A DNA stretch of 64,000 nucleotides from Bryobacterales bacterium (GCA_965226245.1 CBDDCL010000015.1:2038515-2102514); one strand, 5' to 3'. Shown: positions 5,066-63,960, numbered from the stretch's first letter. The notes: generated from the sequence alone by a model not told the origin. Made by a program: numbers and translations.

Positions 5066-5991
5066 TTAGCCATTCAGCTCCGCCAGCATCCGCCGGACCG
5101 AAGATTCCAGCGACATCGTAACCTCCTGAAGCGCCCCTCGCTTGTCGGCCCGATATCGAGGGAGGTGAGCCGCGACGTTTAGCGGCTCCCCGATTTTCAC
5201 GATTGCCTTCCGTGGGCCCCAGCTGGGTCTTCGCTCGAACACTTCCCACTCCAGCATCCCCAGCAAGTCCAAAAACCTTTCGGCGGTCGGTGACTCTCGA
5301 ACGTAACCGTCATGCACCACGATGAAGCGCAGCACTTGCCGAAGATCCTCATAGAGCCCCTGCGCCTGCTTCTGGCGCCGTTCATTTAATTGCTGTTCAT
5401 AATCAGAACTCCCGATGTCGCTGAAGACGATCCGATCGACCATGTTGAACAGGAAACGGATGCGGTCGAGCAGGGGCTGCCCGCGGCGCGGGGAGACGCC
5501 AAGCTCCGTTTCGATCCGGGAGACAATCAACTCCTTCATGAACTGGACCCGCTGGTTCAAGTCCGCGTCCTTGCCTGGAAGGACGTTGTATTTCTTCTCG
5601 ATAGCGCTGAGTACAGCTTCACCGACCCGGCGAAGGCGGTCGTAGAGACTGAGCGGCCGCGGATTCGGGCCGACCAGTTTGTGTTCGAGCTTTTGTAGGG
5701 AACGGTCAATTGTGGGATCCATGTCCCGAAGGTATACGAACTTGATTGCCATCGGCACAAAGTAGAGCGGCAGCGCCTCACCTCGCTTGGTCAAATCCTC
5801 GCACGCCCAAAATGCAAACTGCGCTACTCCTTGCTGGAAAGGCATCAGGGTGTCGTTCTGCCCGCAGACCTCGCCTTCAGGGAAGATGACCAGCCACCGC
5901 TTGCCTTCCACAAGAATCTTGTGGGTCATGCGGAAAGACTTTCTATCCGCGGTGCCCCGCACAATCGAATAGGCTCCCAGCCGCTGTATCA
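5066..5991 (-). pseudogene. C-terminal fragment of a GPAT/PlsB-like glycerolipid acyltransferase
   Basis: The native frame starts ...IQRLGAYSIVRG (block II-like) and contains IFPEGE (block III). The N-terminal 47 codons of ORF 5066..6133 come from the inserted element. Confidence 0.75.
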
Positions 5992-6521: not shown

Positions 6522-6968
6522 TATCAACAAACCTAGGGCGGGCCGTCGCTCAAAAGCCTCCTTGGCCGCAACATAGTTGAACTCCTGGCTCAGCAGCTTG
6601 GAAAGGTGAAAGAGGATGTAGGGCTCTACCAACGCGCCGTGGCTAGGCGTCAGGACCACCCGAAGTCTCTTAAGATCCCTCAGACGCCGCAGGTCCGCTT
6701 CGGTCACTTCCACTTTCACGATCTTGAAAGCTAAGCGCAGCGCAAGCGGCAGCACTACCTTTGCAAGCCCGCTAAGGAGCCGGTTGTTCTTAGGGGGGCG
6801 GAAGGTGAAGGGCTTCTGCCTGGACCCTGTGTAACTGACAGCCACGCTTACGGGGCCCAGCAGAACCGCCATGCTATGCAGTACGGCCTGTTGAACGTCG
6901 AAAAAGTGAGCCCAGGGAAACCATCGAACGCCCAAAAGAAGAAGTTCGCTGGACTGCTCGATGACCAT
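6522..6968 (-). pseudogene. N-terminal fragment of the same GPAT/PlsB-like acyltransferase
   Basis: Contains an HX4-acidic block (TPSHGALVEP) and NYVAAKEAF...PALGLLI. ORF 6492..6968 reads on into the element. Confidence 0.7.
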
Positions 6969-7204: not shown

Positions 7205-8131
7205 TTACTCGTTGAAAGCGCCAGGCCGGTCGGCGGAGGCAATGAGCTCGCTGAGGCTGGCAAAGCGGGCCCCGCCCGTCTCAGGAACCGCGTCGAGGAA
7301 GGCAACGAAACCAAGTTCGGGGCTTTCTCCTTCGTGCTCCGCGGCGAATTTGCGTATGATCTCGATGGCCGGCAAGGTGTCGCGCCCCATGACCTTCACC
7401 AGGGGAAAGTGGAGCAGACCCTCGTAGGATCGGTAGATCACCTCCGTGCAGACCAGCTTGTCGGAACTGAAGAAATCGAACTCGAAGTCGTAGGGCTTTC
7501 CCTCGTGACTGAACGCGCGTACGATCGCTTCCGCAATCCGTTGCTGGGGCAAACGAGGACGCAGTACAGCCACGTAGTCCGCCTGCATCGAGTGTTCGAG
7601 GCTGTTGAAGATGACCCCCTCGCTTACGGCCTCGATGACTGTCTTCGGCCAGCCGTGGGCATCCGTCTGGCGCCATTCCGACAGCCGCGCGCGGACCGCG
7701 GACTCGTCGAGAATCCCCAGGCGAGCCAAGTCCGCCTCTCGCCCGATGTATAAGGCCGCGTGCGGCCAGAAGCCGGGCAGGAAGGCGTTGGACAGATACC
7801 AGTTTCGACGCTCCAGCAGAATATCCCCAGGTTCGAGCAGCTCTTCCATCTCTTCGATCTGGGTGACGCTGATGAACGGCGGCCGATTGACGATTTTGGC
7901 GTCACCAATCCACTCGGACACGAGAGACTGCACGGCAAATACGGGCTTGTAGGCGTCGCTCCTCACACGCTCGCGGAGCCGGGCGAGACTGCTCCTGTCC
8001 TGGCTGGCCTGATGACTGCGCACGTACCCGGCCGCCTCGACGATACGGCCCTCGAGCCAATCGAAGTCCTCCTTGGGCCAGACTTCGGCGCTGCGCCACT
8101 CCGGGCCCTTCTCTTCGAAGTAATGAGCGAG
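7205..8131 (-). pseudogene. C-terminal fragment of a membrane-anchored YiiX-like permuted papain-fold (NlpC/P60-type) protein
   Basis: Shows the PGDILLER...WPHAALYIG and KLVCTEVIY motifs. The frame is continuous with 9160..10340 once the IS and one TSD copy are removed (..KCEELAHYFEEKGPEW..). Confidence 0.6.
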
Positions 8132-9158
8132 ATGGGGTATTTAGTTGACTCCAGTAGCCACTACATCTTGGGGGTGGGGGTGCCGGCCCTGGTGGCCTCG
8201 ACCATTGTCTTATAGGGAGCAGGGTCGGCGGCGACCGCCTGCTGGAGGAGGCGATAGAAAAGTTTGCCGCGCGACCGTGAGGTCCGCCGGTTGAAGCGGA
8301 ACGTGAACTCGTCCAGGTAGTAGTCCAAATACTCGTGACTGACAGCCCCCTGGTGGGTCCCCAACAGCCAGCGCTTTAGCAGAGAGGCGACACGATGGAC
8401 TCTCGGCAGCAGCTTACTCGCCGATTGCCGCTTCCCGCGCAGCACGGTGACTTCATGGCGGTATCCTTTGTTCTCCAATCCCGCATAGCCTTCCCAGCCG
8501 TCGGTGTGCACGAGGCTGCCAGGTTGGATAGCTTCTTCGACAAAGGCTTCCAAGCTCGCCGCTGAGGCATCCGCGATCCGACGGAGCCGGATGCGACCCA
8601 TACCGCGCCCATCCTCCTCGGCAGCAACCGCAACTAACGCTTTGCCAACCATTTCGCGACCTCGGACGCCCTCTTCGACTCCGCCCACATACGTTTCGTC
8701 CACCTCCACCCGGCCGACCAGCCGATTGCGACCGGGGCGCACCATGGCGCGGCGGAACTTGTGCAGCCAGGTCCAGGCGGTTACATAGCTACCCAAACCC
8801 AAGACCCGCTGCAACTCCAGCGCGCTGGCCCCGCCTTTTTGCGTTGTCACCCACCAAGCCGCCCGGAACCACAACGTCAAGGGCTTGCGGGTGTCCTGGA
8901 AAATCGTGCCCGCCGTCACCGAGGCCTGGTAACCGCAGTCGGCGCAGAGCAGCAGATTGCGTTTGCTGGCCCATGAGGACTGGATCCCACAGCGCGGGCA
9001 CACGAACCCCTCCGGCCAGCGCAGCTTCAGCAGGTACTCCCGGCACGCCTCCTCGGTCGAGAATCGAGCTTCCAACTCGACGAGGTTTCGGGGGTAGTCC
9101 TCCTTCATGCCCCCAACCACAACATATTGTGGCTACTGGAGTCAACTAAATACCCCAT
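8132..9158 (-). mobile_element. IS1595-family insertion sequence, full copy 1 (1027 bp)
   Basis: 30-bp TIR ATGGGGTATTTAGTTGACTCCAGTAGCCAC at both ends. Flanking TGAGCGAG lies at 8124-8131 and 9160-9167, with one extra T at 9159. Contains a single transposase ORF. Confidence 0.9.
8161..9120 (-). CDS. IS1595-family (ISXO2-like) DDE transposase with N-terminal zinc ribbon
   Basis: 319 aa. Has FVCPRCG...CADCGYQ zinc ribbon and a DETYVGG catalytic block. Identical to 51748..52707. Confidence 0.9.
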   Translation of the reverse strand: MVGGMKEDYPRNLVELEARFSTEEACREYLLKLRWPEGFVCPRCGIQSSWASKRNLLLCADCGYQASVTAGTIFQDTRKPLTLWFRAAWWVTTQKGGASALELQRVLGLGSYVTAWTWLHKFRRAMVRPGRNRLVGRVEVDETYVGGVEEGVRGREMVGKALVAVAAEEDGRGMGRIRLRRIADASAASLEAFVEEAIQPGSLVHTDGWEGYAGLENKGYRHEVTVLRGKRQSASKLLPRVHRVASLLKRWLLGTHQGAVSHEYLDYYLDEFTFRFNRRTSRSRGKLFYRLLQQAVAADPAPYKTMVEATRAGTPTPKM

Positions 9159-9159
9159 T

Positions 9160-10340
9160 TGAGCGAGTTCCTCGCACTTGCTAAGGTTATGATGGTCAGC
9201 GACATTGTCGTGGATCTTGTCGAATATTCCCGCGACCAGGCCCCAATTCGGCTCGGGCTCATTCAGCTTCCGCCGCAACCTGGGCTGGTCGCCGTAAGTA
9301 TCGATTAGCCTGAGGCTGGTCTCGTACAGCGTGGTTGCCGCTGTTAAGCCCACCACGAAGGCGCGAGCCTTCAAGTCGGGATCGCGCACCGACTCGAATC
9401 CGGAGTAGAGTGTCACCATGCGGACCAGAGCCGCCCGTTGGGCCAAGTAGCTGACGAACAGCCAGCGGATCTGGTCCTCCTCCTCGGGGGTGTAGTAATC
9501 GCGGTTCTCGGCGGCAAGCCGGCCACCGAGTTCACTATGCAAGGCGGTAGCCGAGATTCTGAGGTCTTCTATCGCCGCAGTGACCTTTTTGAGTCGCTGC
9601 AAGTCCTCGTTTACCTGGCGGTCAATCTCCTCGGAGTTGAGATGCGCCAGGGTGGAGGGCAACAGTTCGTACTGGCTTGCCGTCGGGGCGCCGGCACGGC
9701 CAATGTAGATGCCTGCGCAAAAGACCGCAAACAAGAGCAACATTTGCCAGTACATCTTCGCCCACGGCGAGGAGAGTTTGGGCAGTTTGGCCTGGCGTGC
9801 CCACAGCACCAAGAAACCCAGCGCTGCTCCCATGGCCGGAATCGCGATCGCCAGCAGATAAAGAGGACTTGGATCCGGCGGCACACTCGGGTCTGCGGCT
9901 AGCCCCGCCAGCAGCAGCCCGGTTAACGAAGTGCACACACCCGTCGCCCGCCAGAGCCAGTCAGTTTTCTTATCTGGGCGAACCAGGGCCGCCCTCGGCG
10001 CGACCGTTGCTGCCGCTACCAACGCCACCCACCACACTCGCCACAGTGCCGGCTGCTGTGTCAGTGAGGTCCACCAAAGCAGATAGAAGCATACCTGGCT
10101 GGTGGCTAGCGACACAAATCCGAACATCACCAACTTTGGGACGCGATTCCATGCTCCTACGAGAACGAACGCCAAGAACGATCCGACCGCCACACCGAGG
10201 CAGGTCATGAGCACCCGAGGAGGGAGGGCTTCGTCAAAACCGGCCGCTTCGGGGGCCGCTATGAGGACTGCCAGTGTGAGCAACGAAGCAGCGAGCAGCC
10301 CCCGAAAAATGCTTCGCAAAGAAGAAATTGATGTAGGCAT
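9160..10340 (-). pseudogene. N-terminal fragment (multi-pass membrane domain plus helical domain) of the IS-disrupted YiiX-like gene
   Basis: An AAGGAG RBS lies 8 nt upstream of the ATG at 10340 (MPTSISSL). The tail of ORF 9105..10361 (MGYLVDSSS...) is IS sequence. Confidence 0.6.
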
Positions 10341-10418
10341 GGTGAATCTCCTTTCTCTCAAAGAATCGTCGGTAGAACGGTGTCAAAGACCCCGACGGAC
10401 TGCGATCCGGCCCCGCGG

Positions 10419-11045
10419 CTACTCGCTGATCTCCAAAGCCATTGTCCGAATCTTCTTCCAATCGATCTTGCCTGACCCGGGGACAGGGATCTCGTCGACG
10501 AGGTACAAGCTTTCGCGCTTCGGCATCCACAGTTTCGGCAGTCCGGACTCTGCGAGGCGCATGGACAATTCTTCCCTCGATACGCCGGGTTCGCCCTTAC
10601 GGTCGTCCGGGACGGCGGTAGCCACGGCGAGGTTGCCTCCCAACACGTGCGAGACCGTTTCCTCCACTTTGATCTGTGGGACCATCTCGCCGCCGATCTT
10701 GCTGCACCGCGACAAGCGGTCGGTGATGTGGATGAAGCCGTCATCGTCGATCGCCGCCACGCCGCCCGTGTGGTACCAGCCGTCGGTGATGACTTCCTTT
10801 GTCTTCTCCAGTTGTCCGAGATACCCTCTCATCACGTTGGGGCCCTTCACGAGCAGCATCCCGTCTTCGTCCGGCGGGAGGGCATCACTGAACGCAAAGG
10901 GATGCATGTCACAAGCACCTCCGGACCAAGGCAACAGTTTCAGCGGCGCCTCTCTGTTCGGGTTGGCATATCGGGAACCTGAAACAAGTGTATCCGGATC
11001 GCAGAAATCTCGCCAGAGGTGACGTGACAGTTCTTGAGGTGTCAC
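10419..11045 (-). pseudogene. remnant of an AMP-binding (AAS-like) enzyme, C-terminal ~150 aa only
   Basis: From ~10880 downward it is paralogous (~80% nt by eye) to the 3' end of 866..2920 (GMLLVKGPN..GYLGQ..KTKEV..DGWY..SKIGGEMVP). It has an internal deletion. Upstream ORF residues have no family resemblance. Confidence 0.7.
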
Positions 11046-11237
11046 AATCTAGGGGCTGACGCTTCAGCCAGGCACCGCCGACCCGGATCCCACTAGGCGG
11101 CTGGGCATGAGCATCCGCATGACCACGAGTGGGGCTAACTCCCTTGAAACCAATTATATAGCGCCTGTCCGCACCGCAACCCGAATAGCGGCCGCTGGCG
11201 TTTTGTGAAAACTAGTGAGGCGCGCCCAATTCTAACG

Positions 11238-11792
11238 ATGAAAATCGCGCTGAAGGAGTGGGCCGTTGTCATCGAAGCGATGGCGGCCGGGCATCAGATC
11301 TTTCTGCTCCGCAAGGGGGGCATCGCGGAAACCGGCCCCGGTTTCGAACCCAGGCACCGGGAGTTCCTGTTCTTTCCAACCTGGGAGCACCAGCACCTCG
11401 ATTCGGTTCGGCCGGAATTCCATCGGCTCTTCTCGGAGATCACCGAGCCCGACCCAGAAAACCTCGAGATCCGCTACATGGGAAGAGTAGCCGAAGTCCG
11501 GATGGCGCCGCCTTCGCGCCCTCGCATGGACCACCTCAATCGCCACCACATCTGGACGGAAATCTGCGTCGATAAGCGCTACCAGTACCGTCCTGACTTG
11601 CCGCTCTTTATCGTGATCGTCCGCCTATTTCGCCTCAGTGAGCCGCGAACGATTCCGCTTGACCGGCGCTACGCCGGCTGCCGCTCGTGGGTCGAGTTGT
11701 ATGAGGACATCCCCGCGGATTCGCTTGAACCCGTCATCGACGATACCCGTTTTGACCTGCTTCGGAATCAACTGACTGACGAACTTTCATGA
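11238..11792 (+). CDS. DUF1802 family protein
   Basis: MKIALKEWAVVIEAMAAGHQIFLLRKGGIAE is the characteristic N-terminus. ATG at 11238 is preferred over the GTG at 11205. Confidence 0.6.
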   Translation: MKIALKEWAVVIEAMAAGHQIFLLRKGGIAETGPGFEPRHREFLFFPTWEHQHLDSVRPEFHRLFSEITEPDPENLEIRYMGRVAEVRMAPPSRPRMDHLNRHHIWTEICVDKRYQYRPDLPLFIVIVRLFRLSEPRTIPLDRRYAGCRSWVELYEDIPADSLEPVIDDTRFDLLRNQLTDELS

Positions 11793-12060
11793 CTGCGGCG
11801 CCTTGAAAGCAGCAGGAGCCGTTCCCCGGCTGGGGTGCCAGAAAAGCAGCGAGTTCAGTACTGGTACTTACCAGCGTTTTCGCATTCTTACCTGTGGCTC
11901 CAATTGGTGATGGATTCACTGTATCGCGAGAGTCCGTCTCGGGATTCGGCGATGTTTAAAGGGTTCGCGTAAGCTCTCGAAGGTTTAGTTGCGTAGTGTT
12001 GCAACCTTAGGTCTGGGTAGGTGATAATGATTACTAGCGATCCCAGGAAACGTTTGGAGC

Positions 12061-12441
12061 TTGTCTAACGTGTATCTAGTACGGGAACAGTCCAATCTCG
12101 TCGACGCGATTTCTTCCATGTCCACAGCGGGCCGCGAGCAAGCGGCCCGTCGCTTTCTTGAAGGGCTTTCCACCGGCGAGCTGCGCTACATCGCCGCATA
12201 CCTTGGAACAAGAGTGGTTGACCCCGGCCTGCCTCCACCCAGCCAAGATCGCAATCATGCCGCTCAAAGCATTGAGCGGTATGAGGACGCCAAGAAAGGC
12301 CCCGAACCGAAAACGGTCGGCAGCGATTCCCGTTGTTGGGGCAGCATGGCTGGCCATCAAATGATGGTGCTGCTCGAGTATTTGACCCTGTGCAGCCTGA
12401 ATACTCCGGCTACCTTGCCCGTAGAAGCCGGTTGCGCCTAG
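12061..12441 (+). CDS. hypothetical protein
   Basis: 126-aa ORF with protein-like composition. It competes with antisense ORF 12076..12483. Start codon uncertain. Confidence 0.3.
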   Translation: MSNVYLVREQSNLVDAISSMSTAGREQAARRFLEGLSTGELRYIAAYLGTRVVDPGLPPPSQDRNHAAQSIERYEDAKKGPEPKTVGSDSRCWGSMAGHQMMVLLEYLTLCSLNTPATLPVEAGCA

Positions 12442-21371: not shown

Positions 21372-21779
21372 ACAGGCCCGCCGAACTGTAAGCCGGTTTC
21401 TGTACCCCGGCCGAGGCCGGGGTGGCAGCCATTCGTCTAGGTCCGCCATTGCTGGCGGACTCGAGCAACCTACCCGGAACTTCGGCTGCCGGGGGAAGCC
21501 GAACAGCCGTGGGCGCGGCGGGTCACCGCTCGTTCCCTATTTGGTCTTGCTCCGCGTGGGGTTTACCCTGCCACCCCGGTTGCCCGAGGCGCGGTGCGCT
21601 CTTACCGCACCTTTTCACCCTTACCCCGGCGCTCGCCGGGGCGGTACGTTTTCTGTGGCACTTTCCGTGAACTACCCTTTGAGAGTAGCCCCCCGGCCGT
21701 TAGCCGGCACGCTGCCCTGTGGAGACCGGACTTTCCTCCCCGCCATCATGGCGCGGCGGCTGCCCGTTCGGCGGACCCA
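21372..21779 (-). ncRNA. rnpB: RNase P RNA, bacterial type A
   Basis: The minus strand carries GGAGGAAAGUCCGG (reverse complement of 21726-21739), GGUAAGGGUGAAAAGGUGCGGUAAGAGCGCACC and a 3' ACAGAAACCGGCUUACAG. P1 pairs 21766-21777 with 21375-21386. Confidence 0.9.
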
Positions 21780-51718: not shown

Positions 51719-52745
51719 ATGGGGTATTTAGTTGACTCCAGTAGCCACTACATCTTGGGGGTGGGGGTGCCGGCCCTGGTGGCCTCGACCATTGTCTTAT
51801 AGGGAGCAGGGTCGGCGGCGACCGCCTGCTGGAGGAGGCGATAGAAAAGTTTGCCGCGCGACCGTGAGGTCCGCCGGTTGAAGCGGAACGTGAACTCGTC
51901 CAGGTAGTAGTCCAAATACTCGTGACTGACAGCCCCCTGGTGGGTCCCCAACAGCCAGCGCTTTAGCAGAGAGGCGACACGATGGACTCTCGGCAGCAGC
52001 TTACTCGCCGATTGCCGCTTCCCGCGCAGCACGGTGACTTCATGGCGGTATCCTTTGTTCTCCAATCCCGCATAGCCTTCCCAGCCGTCGGTGTGCACGA
52101 GGCTGCCAGGTTGGATAGCTTCTTCGACAAAGGCTTCCAAGCTCGCCGCTGAGGCATCCGCGATCCGACGGAGCCGGATGCGACCCATACCGCGCCCATC
52201 CTCCTCGGCAGCAACCGCAACTAACGCTTTGCCAACCATTTCGCGACCTCGGACGCCCTCTTCGACTCCGCCCACATACGTTTCGTCCACCTCCACCCGG
52301 CCGACCAGCCGATTGCGACCGGGGCGCACCATGGCGCGGCGGAACTTGTGCAGCCAGGTCCAGGCGGTTACATAGCTACCCAAACCCAAGACCCGCTGCA
52401 ACTCCAGCGCGCTGGCCCCGCCTTTTTGCGTTGTCACCCACCAAGCCGCCCGGAACCACAACGTCAAGGGCTTGCGGGTGTCCTGGAAAATCGTGCCCGC
52501 CGTCACCGAGGCCTGGTAACCGCAGTCGGCGCAGAGCAGCAGATTGCGTTTGCTGGCCCATGAGGACTGGATCCCACAGCGCGGGCACACGAACCCCTCC
52601 GGCCAGCGCAGCTTCAGCAGGTACTCCCGGCACGCCTCCTCGGTCGAGAATCGAGCTTCCAACTCGACGAGGTTTCGGGGGTAGTCCTCCTTCATGCCCC
52701 CAACCACAACATATTGTGGCTACTGGAGTCAACTAAATACCCCAT
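51719..52745 (-). mobile_element. IS1595-family insertion sequence, full copy 2 (1027 bp)
   Basis: Same 30-bp TIRs. Perfect 8-bp TSD CCATGGTA at 51711-51718 and 52746-52753. Confidence 0.95.
51748..52707 (-). CDS. IS1595-family DDE transposase
   Basis: 319 aa, identical to 8161..9120. Confidence 0.9.
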   Translation of the reverse strand: MVGGMKEDYPRNLVELEARFSTEEACREYLLKLRWPEGFVCPRCGIQSSWASKRNLLLCADCGYQASVTAGTIFQDTRKPLTLWFRAAWWVTTQKGGASALELQRVLGLGSYVTAWTWLHKFRRAMVRPGRNRLVGRVEVDETYVGGVEEGVRGREMVGKALVAVAAEEDGRGMGRIRLRRIADASAASLEAFVEEAIQPGSLVHTDGWEGYAGLENKGYRHEVTVLRGKRQSASKLLPRVHRVASLLKRWLLGTHQGAVSHEYLDYYLDEFTFRFNRRTSRSRGKLFYRLLQQAVAADPAPYKTMVEATRAGTPTPKM

Positions 52746-54897: not shown

Positions 54898-55104
54898 ACG
54901 TGGCGCGCGCATTCTTGCGTGCCGTGTCGCCATTCTTGGCGACATGTCTTGGGCCCCCAGGCTCACCATAACCCCGATCCCACCGGCGCACGTGCGTTCC
55001 ACCCGCCAAAAAAGCCGAACAAAAGGAGTACGAATTTTCCAAAATCCGCTCAAACCTGCTCACCCTCCCCAAGAAACAACAGAGGCGTGGACGGGAGTCC
55101 ACGC
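54898..55104 (+). repeat. twin-hairpin repeat plus GCGTGGAC-GGGA-GTCCACGC hairpin
   Basis: ACGTGGCGCGCGCATTCTTGCGTGCCGTGTCGCCATTCTTGGCGACATG at 54898-54948. Hairpin at 55085-55104. Confidence 0.7.
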
Positions 55105-62803: not shown

Positions 62804-62838
62804 CCCTAGCCAAAGATATTTGAAATTTCATTCTTGGG

Positions 62839-62951
62839 GAACAGAGCCGCGCCCGCAAGGGTGCGGTCGAGGGTAGTCAGTGCGCCGGGGCCGCCACCGG
62901 AATGCGGTCACTGCCAGACTCGACCGCACCCTTGCGGGCGCGGCTCTGTTC
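62839..62951. repeat. 113-nt palindromic element with perfect 33-bp arms
   Basis: GAACAGAGCCGCGCCCGCAAGGGTGCGGTCGAG (62839-62871) is the exact reverse complement of 62919-62951. Confidence 0.9.
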
Positions 62952-63394
62952 GTGCCGCTATTTCTGCGAACAAGATCCTCAGAGTCGGCGGGCTAGATTC
63001 TAGCCAAAGACATTTGAAATTTCATTCGTGGGGAGTCTGGGTGGCGCCGATACGGACCCGGACCTGGAGCTTTCAGCATTTCAGGGGCGTGCGGCCTGTC
63101 GGCATGAGCCACGTTCACGTGGCTTGGTCTCTTTTAGGCCGGTCCTTTTAGGGCCGGTTCACAAGCCTCTTCTGACCTCGTTCCTCAGCCCGTTTCAACG
63201 GGCTTTCGTCCCACCCTGGCCTTCAACCGCGTTGAACCGCATTCTTGCGTGGTCTGTTGCAATTCTTGGCGAGCTCGGCGCCACGGTGAGCCATTTCTCT
63301 CCACGTGTGGGGAGCGCTTTTGCACGCCCTTCTTTCTGTGAACGAAATCCTCAGAATCGCTGGGGTAGTATCTAATTTCTGCTTTGAAAATCCC

Positions 63395-63444
63395 CATGTC
63401 GCCAGGAATGGCGACACGGCAAGCAAGAATGCGTGCGCCACGTG
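63395..63444 (-). repeat. twin-hairpin repeat (inverted copy) ~50 nt upstream of the OsmC-family gene
   Basis: The reverse complement reads CACGTGGCGCACGCATTCTTGCTTGCCGTGTCGCCATTCCTGGCGACATG. Confidence 0.7.
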
Positions 63445-63495
63445 ATACACTCGCGAACAGAGTAAAATCAATCTTCAATCAAGGGAGACGAAGGA

Positions 63496-63960
63496 ATGAG
63501 CGAGCTGATTCACACCTCGAAAATCAAGATCCTCCAGGACAAGCCACCCGAGCGGCGCGCGCTAATAGAGAACTTTGCCGAGCCGGTCTACTTCGGTGTG
63601 CACGGCGGCATCAAGCACTTCTACAAAATGGAACCCGCACGCGATCTGCCCGCTACGCTCGACTACATGATCGCGGCGGTTGCGGGTTGAATGACCGGCA
63701 CTCTTGCCGGCGCACTGGCAGTGCGTCAAATCCCGAACCACCCCGACAAGGTATGGAGCGAAGTGGAAGGTGATATTGAGAACGTGGACGGTGTAATCCG
63801 AATCACCCGCATCCGCATCAAATATCATCTAAGGATCCCAAAAGGAAAACGCGAGGCGGCTGACCGTGCCATCGCGACTCACGAGCAAAAATGCCCGGCG
63901 GCGATGAGCGTCAAAGGTTCTATTCACCTTGAATACAGTGCCGAAATCGAAGAGGCATAG
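63496..63960 (+). CDS. OsmC/Ohr-family peroxiredoxin-like protein with in-frame TGA at the catalytic Cys position (candidate selenoprotein, otherwise a nonsense pseudogene)
   Basis: ORFs 63496..63690 and 63691..63960 share one frame and are separated only by TGA 63688-63690. The joined product ..DYMIAAVAG-U-MTGTLAGAL.....THEQKCPAA.. is a complete OsmC fold. Confidence 0.6.
63695..63726 (+). promoter_or_regulatory. candidate bacterial SECIS region (two adjacent hairpins 5-36 nt after the UGA)
   Basis: CCGGCA-CUCU-UGCCGG (63695-63710) and GCGCAC-UGGCA-GUGCGU (63710-63726). The second apical loop contains GG about 29 nt after the UGA. Confidence 0.35.

Follow-up and report, generated by a model that had tools for sequence, protein, structure and literature searches.

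How is a gene read when its frame is broken by a single TGA at the position of a catalytic cysteine? The question is raised by positions 63496–63960 of a 64,000-nt stretch of DNA from a Bryobacterales bacterium (GCA_965226245.1, CBDDCL010000015.1:2038515-2102514), the whole of which is termed the window here. The original prediction for this locus, made from the sequence alone, left a choice between a selenocysteine (Sec)-containing OsmC-like peroxidase and a nonsense pseudogene. Comparison with related loci leads us to the view that 63496–63960 is very likely a single functional gene, and that its product would be a Sec-containing OsmC-like thiol peroxidase. The evidence comes from the fold of the product, the conservation of the TGA, the selection acting on both sides of it and the hairpins that follow it.

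An OsmC-superfamily gene with TGA at the first redox position

The locus comprises two open reading frames (ORFs) in the same frame on the + strand, 63496–63690 (64 aa) and 63691–63960 (89 aa). The sole interruption is the TGA at 63688–63690, so that the layout originally described, including its coordinates, is reproduced. Read as one, the OsmC-superfamily gene is complete (63496–63960, +). It starts with the ATG at 63496, contains an in-frame UGA as codon 65, terminates with the TAG at 63958–63960 and encodes 154 residues. Directly abutting the ATG is a purine-rich stretch, AAGGGAGACGAAGGA (63481–63495, +), that was read from the sequence as Shine-Dalgarno-like and may function as such. The ~56 nt preceding the start codon are 93–98% identical in the close relatives L001, L002 and L004.

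The joined 154-aa product matches the Pfam OsmC family (PF02566) with a score of 46.4 bits, well above the gathering cut-off of 27.5. The match extends over residues 55–147, and the TGA lies inside it. The residues around codon 65 read AAVAG-U-MTGTLAGALAVR, where U denotes Sec. The redox motif is U-M-T-G-T in the window and U-L-T-G-T in most orthologues; the glycine at +3 is invariant, and it is flanked by threonine at +2 and +4. When aligned with sequences of known structure in the PDB, codon 65 (63688–63690, +) falls on the first cysteine of OsmC from both Thermus thermophilus (AAHAGC, 1ukk) and Escherichia coli (AAHAAC, 1qwi). It is thus a candidate Sec codon at the position of the peroxidatic cysteine. 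The second (resolving) cysteine would be Cys133, encoded by the TGC at 63892–63894 (+) within K-C-P-A-A. This residue is invariant in the family alignments and aligns with the second cysteine (that of the 'CP' sequence) in 1ukk and 1qwi.

The fold was examined using an AlphaFold2 model of the Cys-containing orthologue P0003 (~58% identical), for which the rows of the alignment were the window ORFs and their relatives. The model has a predicted local distance difference test value (pLDDT) of 95.5 and a predicted template-modelling score (pTM) of 0.86. The site corresponding to codon 65 lies in a long central helix (residues 54–76), and the second cysteine is located at the junction of two helices (119–132 and 134–138). 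Every one of the 50 best matches that Foldseek gives in the PDB is an OsmC, Ohr or OsmC-like protein, and the template-modelling score (TMt) reaches 0.86. The OsmC and Ohr structures 2onf, 6mjn, 4mh4, 1lql, 1n2f and 1qwi match with TMt of 0.65–0.86 at a sequence identity of 10–20%. By domain score, fold and the two redox positions the product belongs to the OsmC/Ohr superfamily. Three elements of the original prediction are therefore borne out at the level of the protein: the joined product has an OsmC/Ohr fold, the TGA occupies the position of the cysteine in the helix motif, and the second conserved cysteine is present.

Conservation of the TGA and selection on both halves

Relatives were collected by scanning one genome per GTDB species with two peptide patterns, and the best 80 of 286 relatives were used. 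A further three loci were added by exact protein look-up to give a set of 83 loci, or 84 genes with that of the window. Both patterns lay upstream of codon 65 and could not favour TGA, so the tally of codons at this position is unbiased. Codon 65 is TGA in 83/83 related loci (84/84 with the window), and never TAA, TAG, TGC or TGT. Both halves of the gene are intact in all 83 loci. The loci are mostly from metagenome-assembled genomes (MAGs) of Bryobacterales and other Terriglobia; others are labelled as Marinacidobacterales, KSB1, Methylomirabilota, Anaerolineae, Gemmatimonadetes and Cytophagia. The closest among the best 80 of 286 is a Bryobacterales MAG with 89% identity, and protein identity across the loci falls to ~55%.

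TGA is an ordinary terminator in these genomes. It ends 13 of the 25 Pfam-supported ORFs of the window, and the terminal stops of the 84 genes themselves are TAG in 38, TGA in 34 and TAA in 12. The genetic code has therefore not been reassigned.

The ratio of non-synonymous to synonymous substitution rates (dN/dS) was calculated for 655 pairs and is 0.08 upstream of the TGA (N-terminal half) and 0.14 downstream of it (C-terminal half). On either side many residues never change, their codons varying freely at synonymous positions. Both halves are under strong purifying selection. The low dN/dS downstream, together with invariant residues specified by freely varying codons, shows that the frame after the TGA is translated, and a pseudogene is thereby excluded.

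This bears directly on the second option of the original prediction. One in-frame stop in one sequence, followed by a fold that is not significant when a single sequence is considered, would be compatible with a nonsense pseudogene, or with an assembly or sequencing error, in which the downstream half is untranslated. The same TGA is however found in 83 independent assemblies from several phyla across the whole range of protein identity. Conserved sequence continues downstream of it, and there is no frameshift, second stop or other decay in any copy, decay in relatives being what the prediction had proposed to look for. A common contaminant as the source is ruled out by the sequence divergence among the loci. 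Given TGA in 83/83 loci and a downstream dN/dS of 0.14, the nonsense pseudogene is not favoured and, with the error, is extremely unlikely; of the two options it is the Sec-containing OsmC-like peroxidase that stands.

Translation of the downstream frame might also be achieved by reinitiation. On such a scheme translation would stop at the UGA and restart at an adjacent AUG, and chains of 64 and 89 aa would assemble into a protein lacking the first cysteine. In the window an ATG does directly follow the UGA, and gene callers annotate an 89-aa protein from it, as in many public entries. Yet codon 66 is CTG in most orthologues, and these have no ATG or GTG in frame close by. The break would interrupt the central helix 54–76 exactly at the catalytic residue, and the Cys-containing orthologues are single chains. 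Moreover, a stop at codon 65 would have no need to be TGA in 84/84 genes that end in TAG, TGA and TAA in the proportions 38:34:12. A split gene is thus very unlikely, and a single chain with Sec at codon 65 is preferred.

The public records reflect the way in which such genes are called. A protein search returned 127 relatives, most of which are entries of 89–90 aa whose first residue is the one after the TGA; some cover the N-terminal part and break off immediately ahead of the TGA, and a few are full length. In the alignment of these relatives the column of the TGA contains W in five full-length entries and C in two. A search with the C-terminal ORF of the window against 1.84 billion representatives gave 293 clusters at E ≤ 0.001, most of them starting one residue past the TGA. 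The site is Cys in 12 of the 14 full-length representatives, a mistranslated W in one and Ser in one. For one W entry, P0001, the DNA was traced (locus L089). The codon is TGA (at 520), and translation of the gene does not yield the protein on record. The original prediction had expected gene callers to split or truncate the gene, and the databases indeed hold 89-aa fragments or full-length entries with a false Trp.

Trp is found at the active site in the public full-length entries P0001, P0002, P0004, P0005, P0011 and P0145, of which P0001 alone has proof at the level of DNA. Apparently the gene-calling pipeline has read TGA as W in these entries, which could mislead alignments and models of the family. 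One of the true Cys forms, P0009, is 51% identical to the product of the window and has TGC at the aligned codon. Its gene (L086, 5001–5480, +) is arranged tail-to-tail with a 132-aa OsmC-family gene (5558–5956, −), and this layout recurs on three contigs.

Hairpins downstream of the UGA

In bacterial selenoprotein genes the UGA is followed by a SelB-dependent hairpin, the selenocysteine insertion sequence (SECIS), within the coding sequence. The constraints on the bacterial SECIS (bSECIS) were taken as quoted in PMC13188914, Fig. 2A. They are an apical loop of 3–9 nt with G in the first two loop positions, an upper stem of 4–16 bp, a spacing from UGA to loop of 16–37 nt, and a minimum free energy of ≤ −7.5 kcal/mol.

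The original prediction included two hairpins shortly after the UGA. Both are predicted here, and as a SECIS the second alone qualifies. The first, CCGGCA-CUCU-UGCCGG (63695–63710, +; −10.2 kcal/mol), has its stem formed by 63695–63700 and 63705–63710. It fails two of the bSECIS constraints, since G is absent from its loop and the spacing from the UGA is only 10 nt. It is also poorly conserved: in the class of sequences to which the window belongs (class A, below) pairing is seen in only 75% of cells, and 12/34 sequences form the innermost pair. It is probably incidental and not the SECIS.

Hairpin 2 (63709–63727, +) is the candidate SECIS. Its core stem is formed by 63711–63716 and 63720–63725, closed by a loop of sequence GGC (63717–63719), and can be lengthened to 8 bp (63709–63727) with G-U and G-C pairs. 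With 6–8 bp, a spacing of 26 nt and a predicted free energy of −8.3 to −10.3 kcal/mol, it agrees with all four bSECIS constraints. Like the bacterial SECIS consensus (the bSECISearch model, with E. coli fdhF as prototype) it is a hairpin within the coding sequence with a small loop starting with GG, and its spacing and energy are in range. It differs in its short stem of 6–8 bp, its loop of only 3 nt, and the presence of a second, non-conserved hairpin before it. As judged from sequence, hairpin 2 fits the SelB-dependent bSECIS model and is a candidate for the element.

Among the 83 loci and the window there are 77 distinct post-UGA sequences, and hairpins of the type found in the window are broken in ~45 of them. 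As no structure is shared by all 77, the sequences were split into two classes. Class A has 34 sequences, including the window, and class B has 43, which make up the bulk of the Bryobacterales.

In class A 91.7% of the cells of hairpin 2 are paired over the 34 sequences. Compensatory changes are seen at two pairs, one of which is CG in 23 sequences, UA in 5 and UG in 1, and the other GC in 15, AU in 9 and GU in 4. The covariation score of 0.147 is matched by 0/500 shuffles and is above that of every slid control.

The post-UGA region of class B is almost invariant, and two structures may be drawn for it. One is a long hairpin with its 5′ end at the UGA (95% paired). The other is an 8-bp hairpin, CUGUCAGG-GGC-CCUGGCAG, located 20 nt from the UGA (96.5% paired). 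The long hairpin was also tried as the structure of the window and rejected; it has 70% pairing in class A and no covariation.

Taking both classes together, a hairpin with a perfect stem that agrees with all four constraints is present in 71/77 sequences (28/34 in class A and 43/43 in class B). The main geometries are a spacing of 26 nt with a loop of GGC or GGA, and a spacing of 20 nt with a loop of GGC. The geometry of the window is found in 26/34 class-A sequences. In class B the hairpin with the GGC triloop is thus 6 nt (two codons) nearer to the UGA, and it is formed from different codons. Six sequences of Sulfopaludibacter/Solibacteraceae type match neither geometry. In the Cys-containing orthologue P0009 the region downstream of the aligned codon has only a weak, unrelated fold (−8 kcal/mol), and a SECIS-type hairpin is absent. 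Conservation of the hairpin among orthologues, which had been proposed as a check on the prediction, is therefore observed in the 71 sequences, with compensatory changes in class A and absence of the hairpin from this Cys form.

The variability of synonymous codons is lowered in codons 66–68, 71, 74 and 75. Just past the UGA it is 0.10 for T67, compared with ~0.6 for T54 and T69, and 0.05 for L74, compared with ~0.5 for L55 and L70.

Decoding of the UGA and relation to known families

A number of observations weigh against a Sec-containing peroxidase. The sequence matches of the product to OsmC in the PDB are weak (E = 0.005–0.05), and we infer peroxidase chemistry solely from the fold and the positions of the two cysteines. 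The fold of the window by itself has z = −1.7 relative to shuffled sequences. By chance a SECIS-like hairpin follows 5.8% of the codons in the other genes of the window, or 1.8% if at least the same stability is required. The hairpin is therefore unremarkable when taken alone, and the case rests on the comparative evidence. One consensus structure for the 77 distinct post-UGA sequences was not found, RNAalifold giving only 3 pairs. The covarying positions of class A sit in codons, and protein constraint could give part of the signal; one covarying pair joins a synonymous third position to a second codon position, so coevolution of the protein alone is not readily sufficient to explain it. The genes selA, selB and selD were not found by tblastn with E. 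coli SelA, SelB and SelD in the window, in the near-identical contig L090 (not the contig of the window itself, from which it differs at ~4% of ungapped positions) or in ~1.6 Mb of flanking sequence, and E. coli SelB gave only weak, generic GTPase matches. Nor was tRNA-Sec called by ARAGORN in the same sequences; the window has no tRNA of any kind by this method. These absences carry little weight, because the flanks cover only ~10 kb on either side of each gene. Lastly, a second selenoprotein gene was not found in the window itself. A scan of the window for pairs of ORFs joined by TGA, ranked by GC content at third codon positions (GC3), gave 226 candidates and no discrimination at 59% GC.

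Second selenoprotein genes are found on the contigs of relatives. These were sought by a Sec/Cys homology scan, using a composition filter that removed ordinary stops beside off-frame (Arg/Ser/Pro-rich) translations of neighbouring sequence. At the OsmC site the scan gave 84 TGA and 3 Cys, with no other pattern. Beyond OsmC it returned AhpC/TSA-family genes at five loci and a DUF3179 gene at one (L068), and in each of these genes the Pfam domain spans the TGA.

The AhpC/TSA-family genes (PF00578) encode secreted proteins with the motif W-U-P-x-C-K. They are located on the OsmC contigs of L007 (1397–2524, −, with an in-frame TGA at 2251), L066 (5891–6982, −, TGA at 6739), L075 (8469–8930, +), L077 (8331–8939, +) and L082 (8384–8938, +), the TGA being at ~8592 in each of the last three. 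Hairpins of 7–8 bp with a loop of GGU, GUU or GUC follow ~17 nt past the TGA. These genes match the catalogued 'Prx-like UxxC' selenoproteins. In common with the OsmC gene, a redox cysteine is replaced by Sec and a SECIS hairpin lies downstream. They differ in fold (thioredoxin), in motif (U-x-x-C) and in carrying a signal peptide, are not related to OsmC, and were not found in the window. The versions in L007 and L066 have a C-terminal DsbD_N domain, and in the three Marinacidobacterales loci only ~1.1 kb separates the end of the AhpC/TSA-family gene from the OsmC gene downstream of it.

The DUF3179 gene (PF11376, E = 3e-80; L068, 7546–8595, +) has its TGA at 7867 in the sequence AVTW-U-PLAHTG, and starts ~0.55 kb downstream of the OsmC gene. 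The site is aligned as TGA in three and Cys in two among the loci. DUF3179 is a catalogued selenoprotein family, and a tight hairpin of 7–8 bp with a G-containing triloop is located ~17 nt downstream in L068.

Catalogued selenoprotein genes thus share contigs with the OsmC gene in six relatives, and the genomes that carry this OsmC gene very probably decode Sec. The L007 contig is from the Bryobacterales, and its OsmC is 80% identical to that of the window with the same SECIS class. We infer the Sec-decoding trait for the genome of the window itself. Acidobacteria are among the phyla that contain selenoproteins (Zhang et al. 2006, PMC1794560), and the proximity of the Prx-like and DUF3179 Sec genes suggests that these genomes have small selenoproteomes.

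The comparative data show read-through of the UGA only, and not the identity of the inserted residue. The codon might therefore be decoded as Cys, Ser, Trp or another residue by a suppressor or tRNA(Sec)-like tRNA, and the failure to find Sec machinery in the window, L090 or the flanks is in keeping with this. Candidates would be the acidobacterial allo-tRNAs, a tRNA(Cys) of SelC* type, or read-through by a near-cognate tRNA-Trp. Acidobacteria carry irregular tRNAs that are possible missense or nonsense suppressors, and a tRNA(Cys) mimicking tRNA(Sec) may read UGA in deltaproteobacteria (Mukai et al., PMC5389517). Against such decoding, the conserved hairpin is of the kind expected of a SelB-dependent bSECIS, the site is paired specifically with Cys in homologues, and catalogued selenoprotein families are encoded on the same contigs in relatives. 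TGA terminates normally in the same genomes, contrary to the action of a general suppressor. The two odd tRNAs called by ARAGORN lack support from Rfam. We consider decoding as a residue other than Sec to be unlikely.

The two calls are a 95-nt 'tRNA-Glu(ctc)' in L046 (17277–17371, +) and a 92-nt tRNA with an undefined 4-base anticodon in L083 (15127–15218, +), located 5–7 kb from the OsmC gene. Rfam gives no match to tRNA or tRNA-Sec at E ≤ 1, and both calls are probably spurious, though standard models might miss the irregular allo-tRNAs of Acidobacteria.

With Sec as the preferred residue, a course of events may be proposed. SelB carrying Sec-tRNA(Sec) would recognise hairpin 2, so that Sec is inserted at the UGA and termination is avoided. 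In the folded protein the selenolate of U65, on the long central helix, would attack the hydroperoxide, and Cys133 would resolve the resulting selenenic acid into a selenenylsulfide. The latter would be recycled by a thiol or lipoyl-type reductant, as in the two-Cys OsmC and Ohr enzymes.

OsmC-like selenoproteins as such are not new. They were first described in 2005 by Zhang, Fomenko and Gladyshev, who found three Sec sequences with a UxxT motif, belonging to COG1765, in the Sargasso Sea (Genome Biol 6:R37). The Global Ocean Sampling (GOS) study of 2008 gave 5 Sec and 161 Cys forms of OsmC-like proteins, and the family is listed in reviews of 2022 and 2026. A curated NCBI model exists for it, NF041052 'OsmC-related (seleno)protein'. 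The gene of the window shares with the catalogued family the PF02566 domain, an in-frame UGA at the first redox cysteine, the existence of Cys homologues and a SECIS-like hairpin within the coding sequence.

The clade to which the window belongs differs from this family in its NF041052 score and from the published motif, and may be separate from it. Against a cut-off of 95 bits the window scores 19.6, and eight other members of the clade, comprising Sec and Cys forms, score 12.6–25.3. The catalogued proteins are of the COG1765/YhfA type with the motif UxxT, whereas the clade has U-[M/L]-T-G-T, with glycine at +3. Sec forms are rare among the marine proteins, while TGA forms predominate among the close relatives of the window, and the taxa of the clade are mainly soil Acidobacteriota.

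OsmC (TIGR03562; E. coli, T. thermophilus) and Ohr (TIGR03561) have the same fold, with the first redox position on the long helix and the second in C-P. In the product of the window the peroxidatic cysteine of these thiol peroxidases would be replaced by Sec, and its role as a peroxidase is a prediction. The nine clade members score at most 35.2 bits with TIGR03562 (cut-off 85.8) and at most 20.1 with TIGR03561 (cut-off 88.85), and the cut-off of the SACOL1771 subfamily is also unreached. The clade has a conserved N-terminal segment of its own, H-T-S..R20..G-V-H-G-G-I-K..E-P..P-x-T-L-D, unlike OsmC and Ohr.

The locus may represent a clade of the OsmC superfamily that has so far escaped cataloguing and falls outside NF041052/COG1765, OsmC and Ohr, with Sec as its predominant and probably ancestral state and not a rare variant. 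The clade would be widespread in soil Acidobacteriota (Bryobacterales) and scattered in other phyla, and in one sublineage its SECIS would have been rebuilt two codons away with the GGC triloop kept in the shifted element. We regard this joint reading as about as likely as not.

The surroundings of the gene are unexceptional. The content of the window is ordinary housekeeping (thrS, RNase E/G, mreB-mreC-PBP2-rodA, dnaJ, folC and RNase P RNA), with two copies of IS1595. The RNase P RNA is of class A (21373–21775, −; RF00010, 289 bits) and is the sole match to Rfam above the gathering score. Two ORFs of 319 aa (8161–9120, −, and 51748–52707, −) have identical Pfam scores for DDE_Tnp_IS1595 and a zinc ribbon, and are probably copies of one insertion sequence ~43 kb apart.

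Some 690 nt lie between folC and the OsmC gene in the window, compared with ~220 nt in the close relative L001, and this intergenic region contains short dispersed repeats (62806–63434). These include a 35-nt direct repeat (62806 and 63000), a perfect 33-nt inverted repeat (62839–62871 and 62919–62951) and a 49-nt repeat (62954 and 63326), and a 49-nt segment (63395–63443) occurs again at 54898–54946. Copies are found elsewhere in L001, L002, L005 and L026. The repeats look like small mobile or repetitive extragenic palindromic (REP)-like elements.

The window ends 40 nt past the stop of the OsmC gene. In the closest relatives of the window, L001, L002 and L090 (~10230–12095, +), OsmC is followed by a gene of 618–622 aa with an acetoacetate-decarboxylase-like domain (PF06314), the called start of which overlaps the 3′ end of OsmC by ~30–45 nt. 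An FAD-dependent oxidoreductase is next in these loci, and the three genes may be co-transcribed.

The locus is very probably a real selenoprotein gene, and possibly a member of a distinct clade of the known OsmC-like selenoprotein type. Current understanding is not overturned, since both OsmC-like selenoproteins and their mode of decoding are already established. For the databases there is a practical consequence. The records of at least 83 species-level genomes, and most database entries of the clade, give the gene either in pieces, as an 89-aa 'OsmC family protein' or as a fragment from the N-terminal side, or at full length with Trp wrongly placed at the active site, so that the catalytic residue is missing or wrong. 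NF041052 does not rescue these records, and a dedicated model of the clade would correct them. If the displacement of the hairpin is true, it would be an instance, found in nature, of a SECIS being replaced within a coding sequence that is itself under constraint, and the two positions offer a tractable comparison for the movement of a SECIS within a coding region. For the organisms themselves, the gene would add a predicted selenium-dependent enzyme of peroxide defence to the Bryobacterales and related Acidobacteriota.

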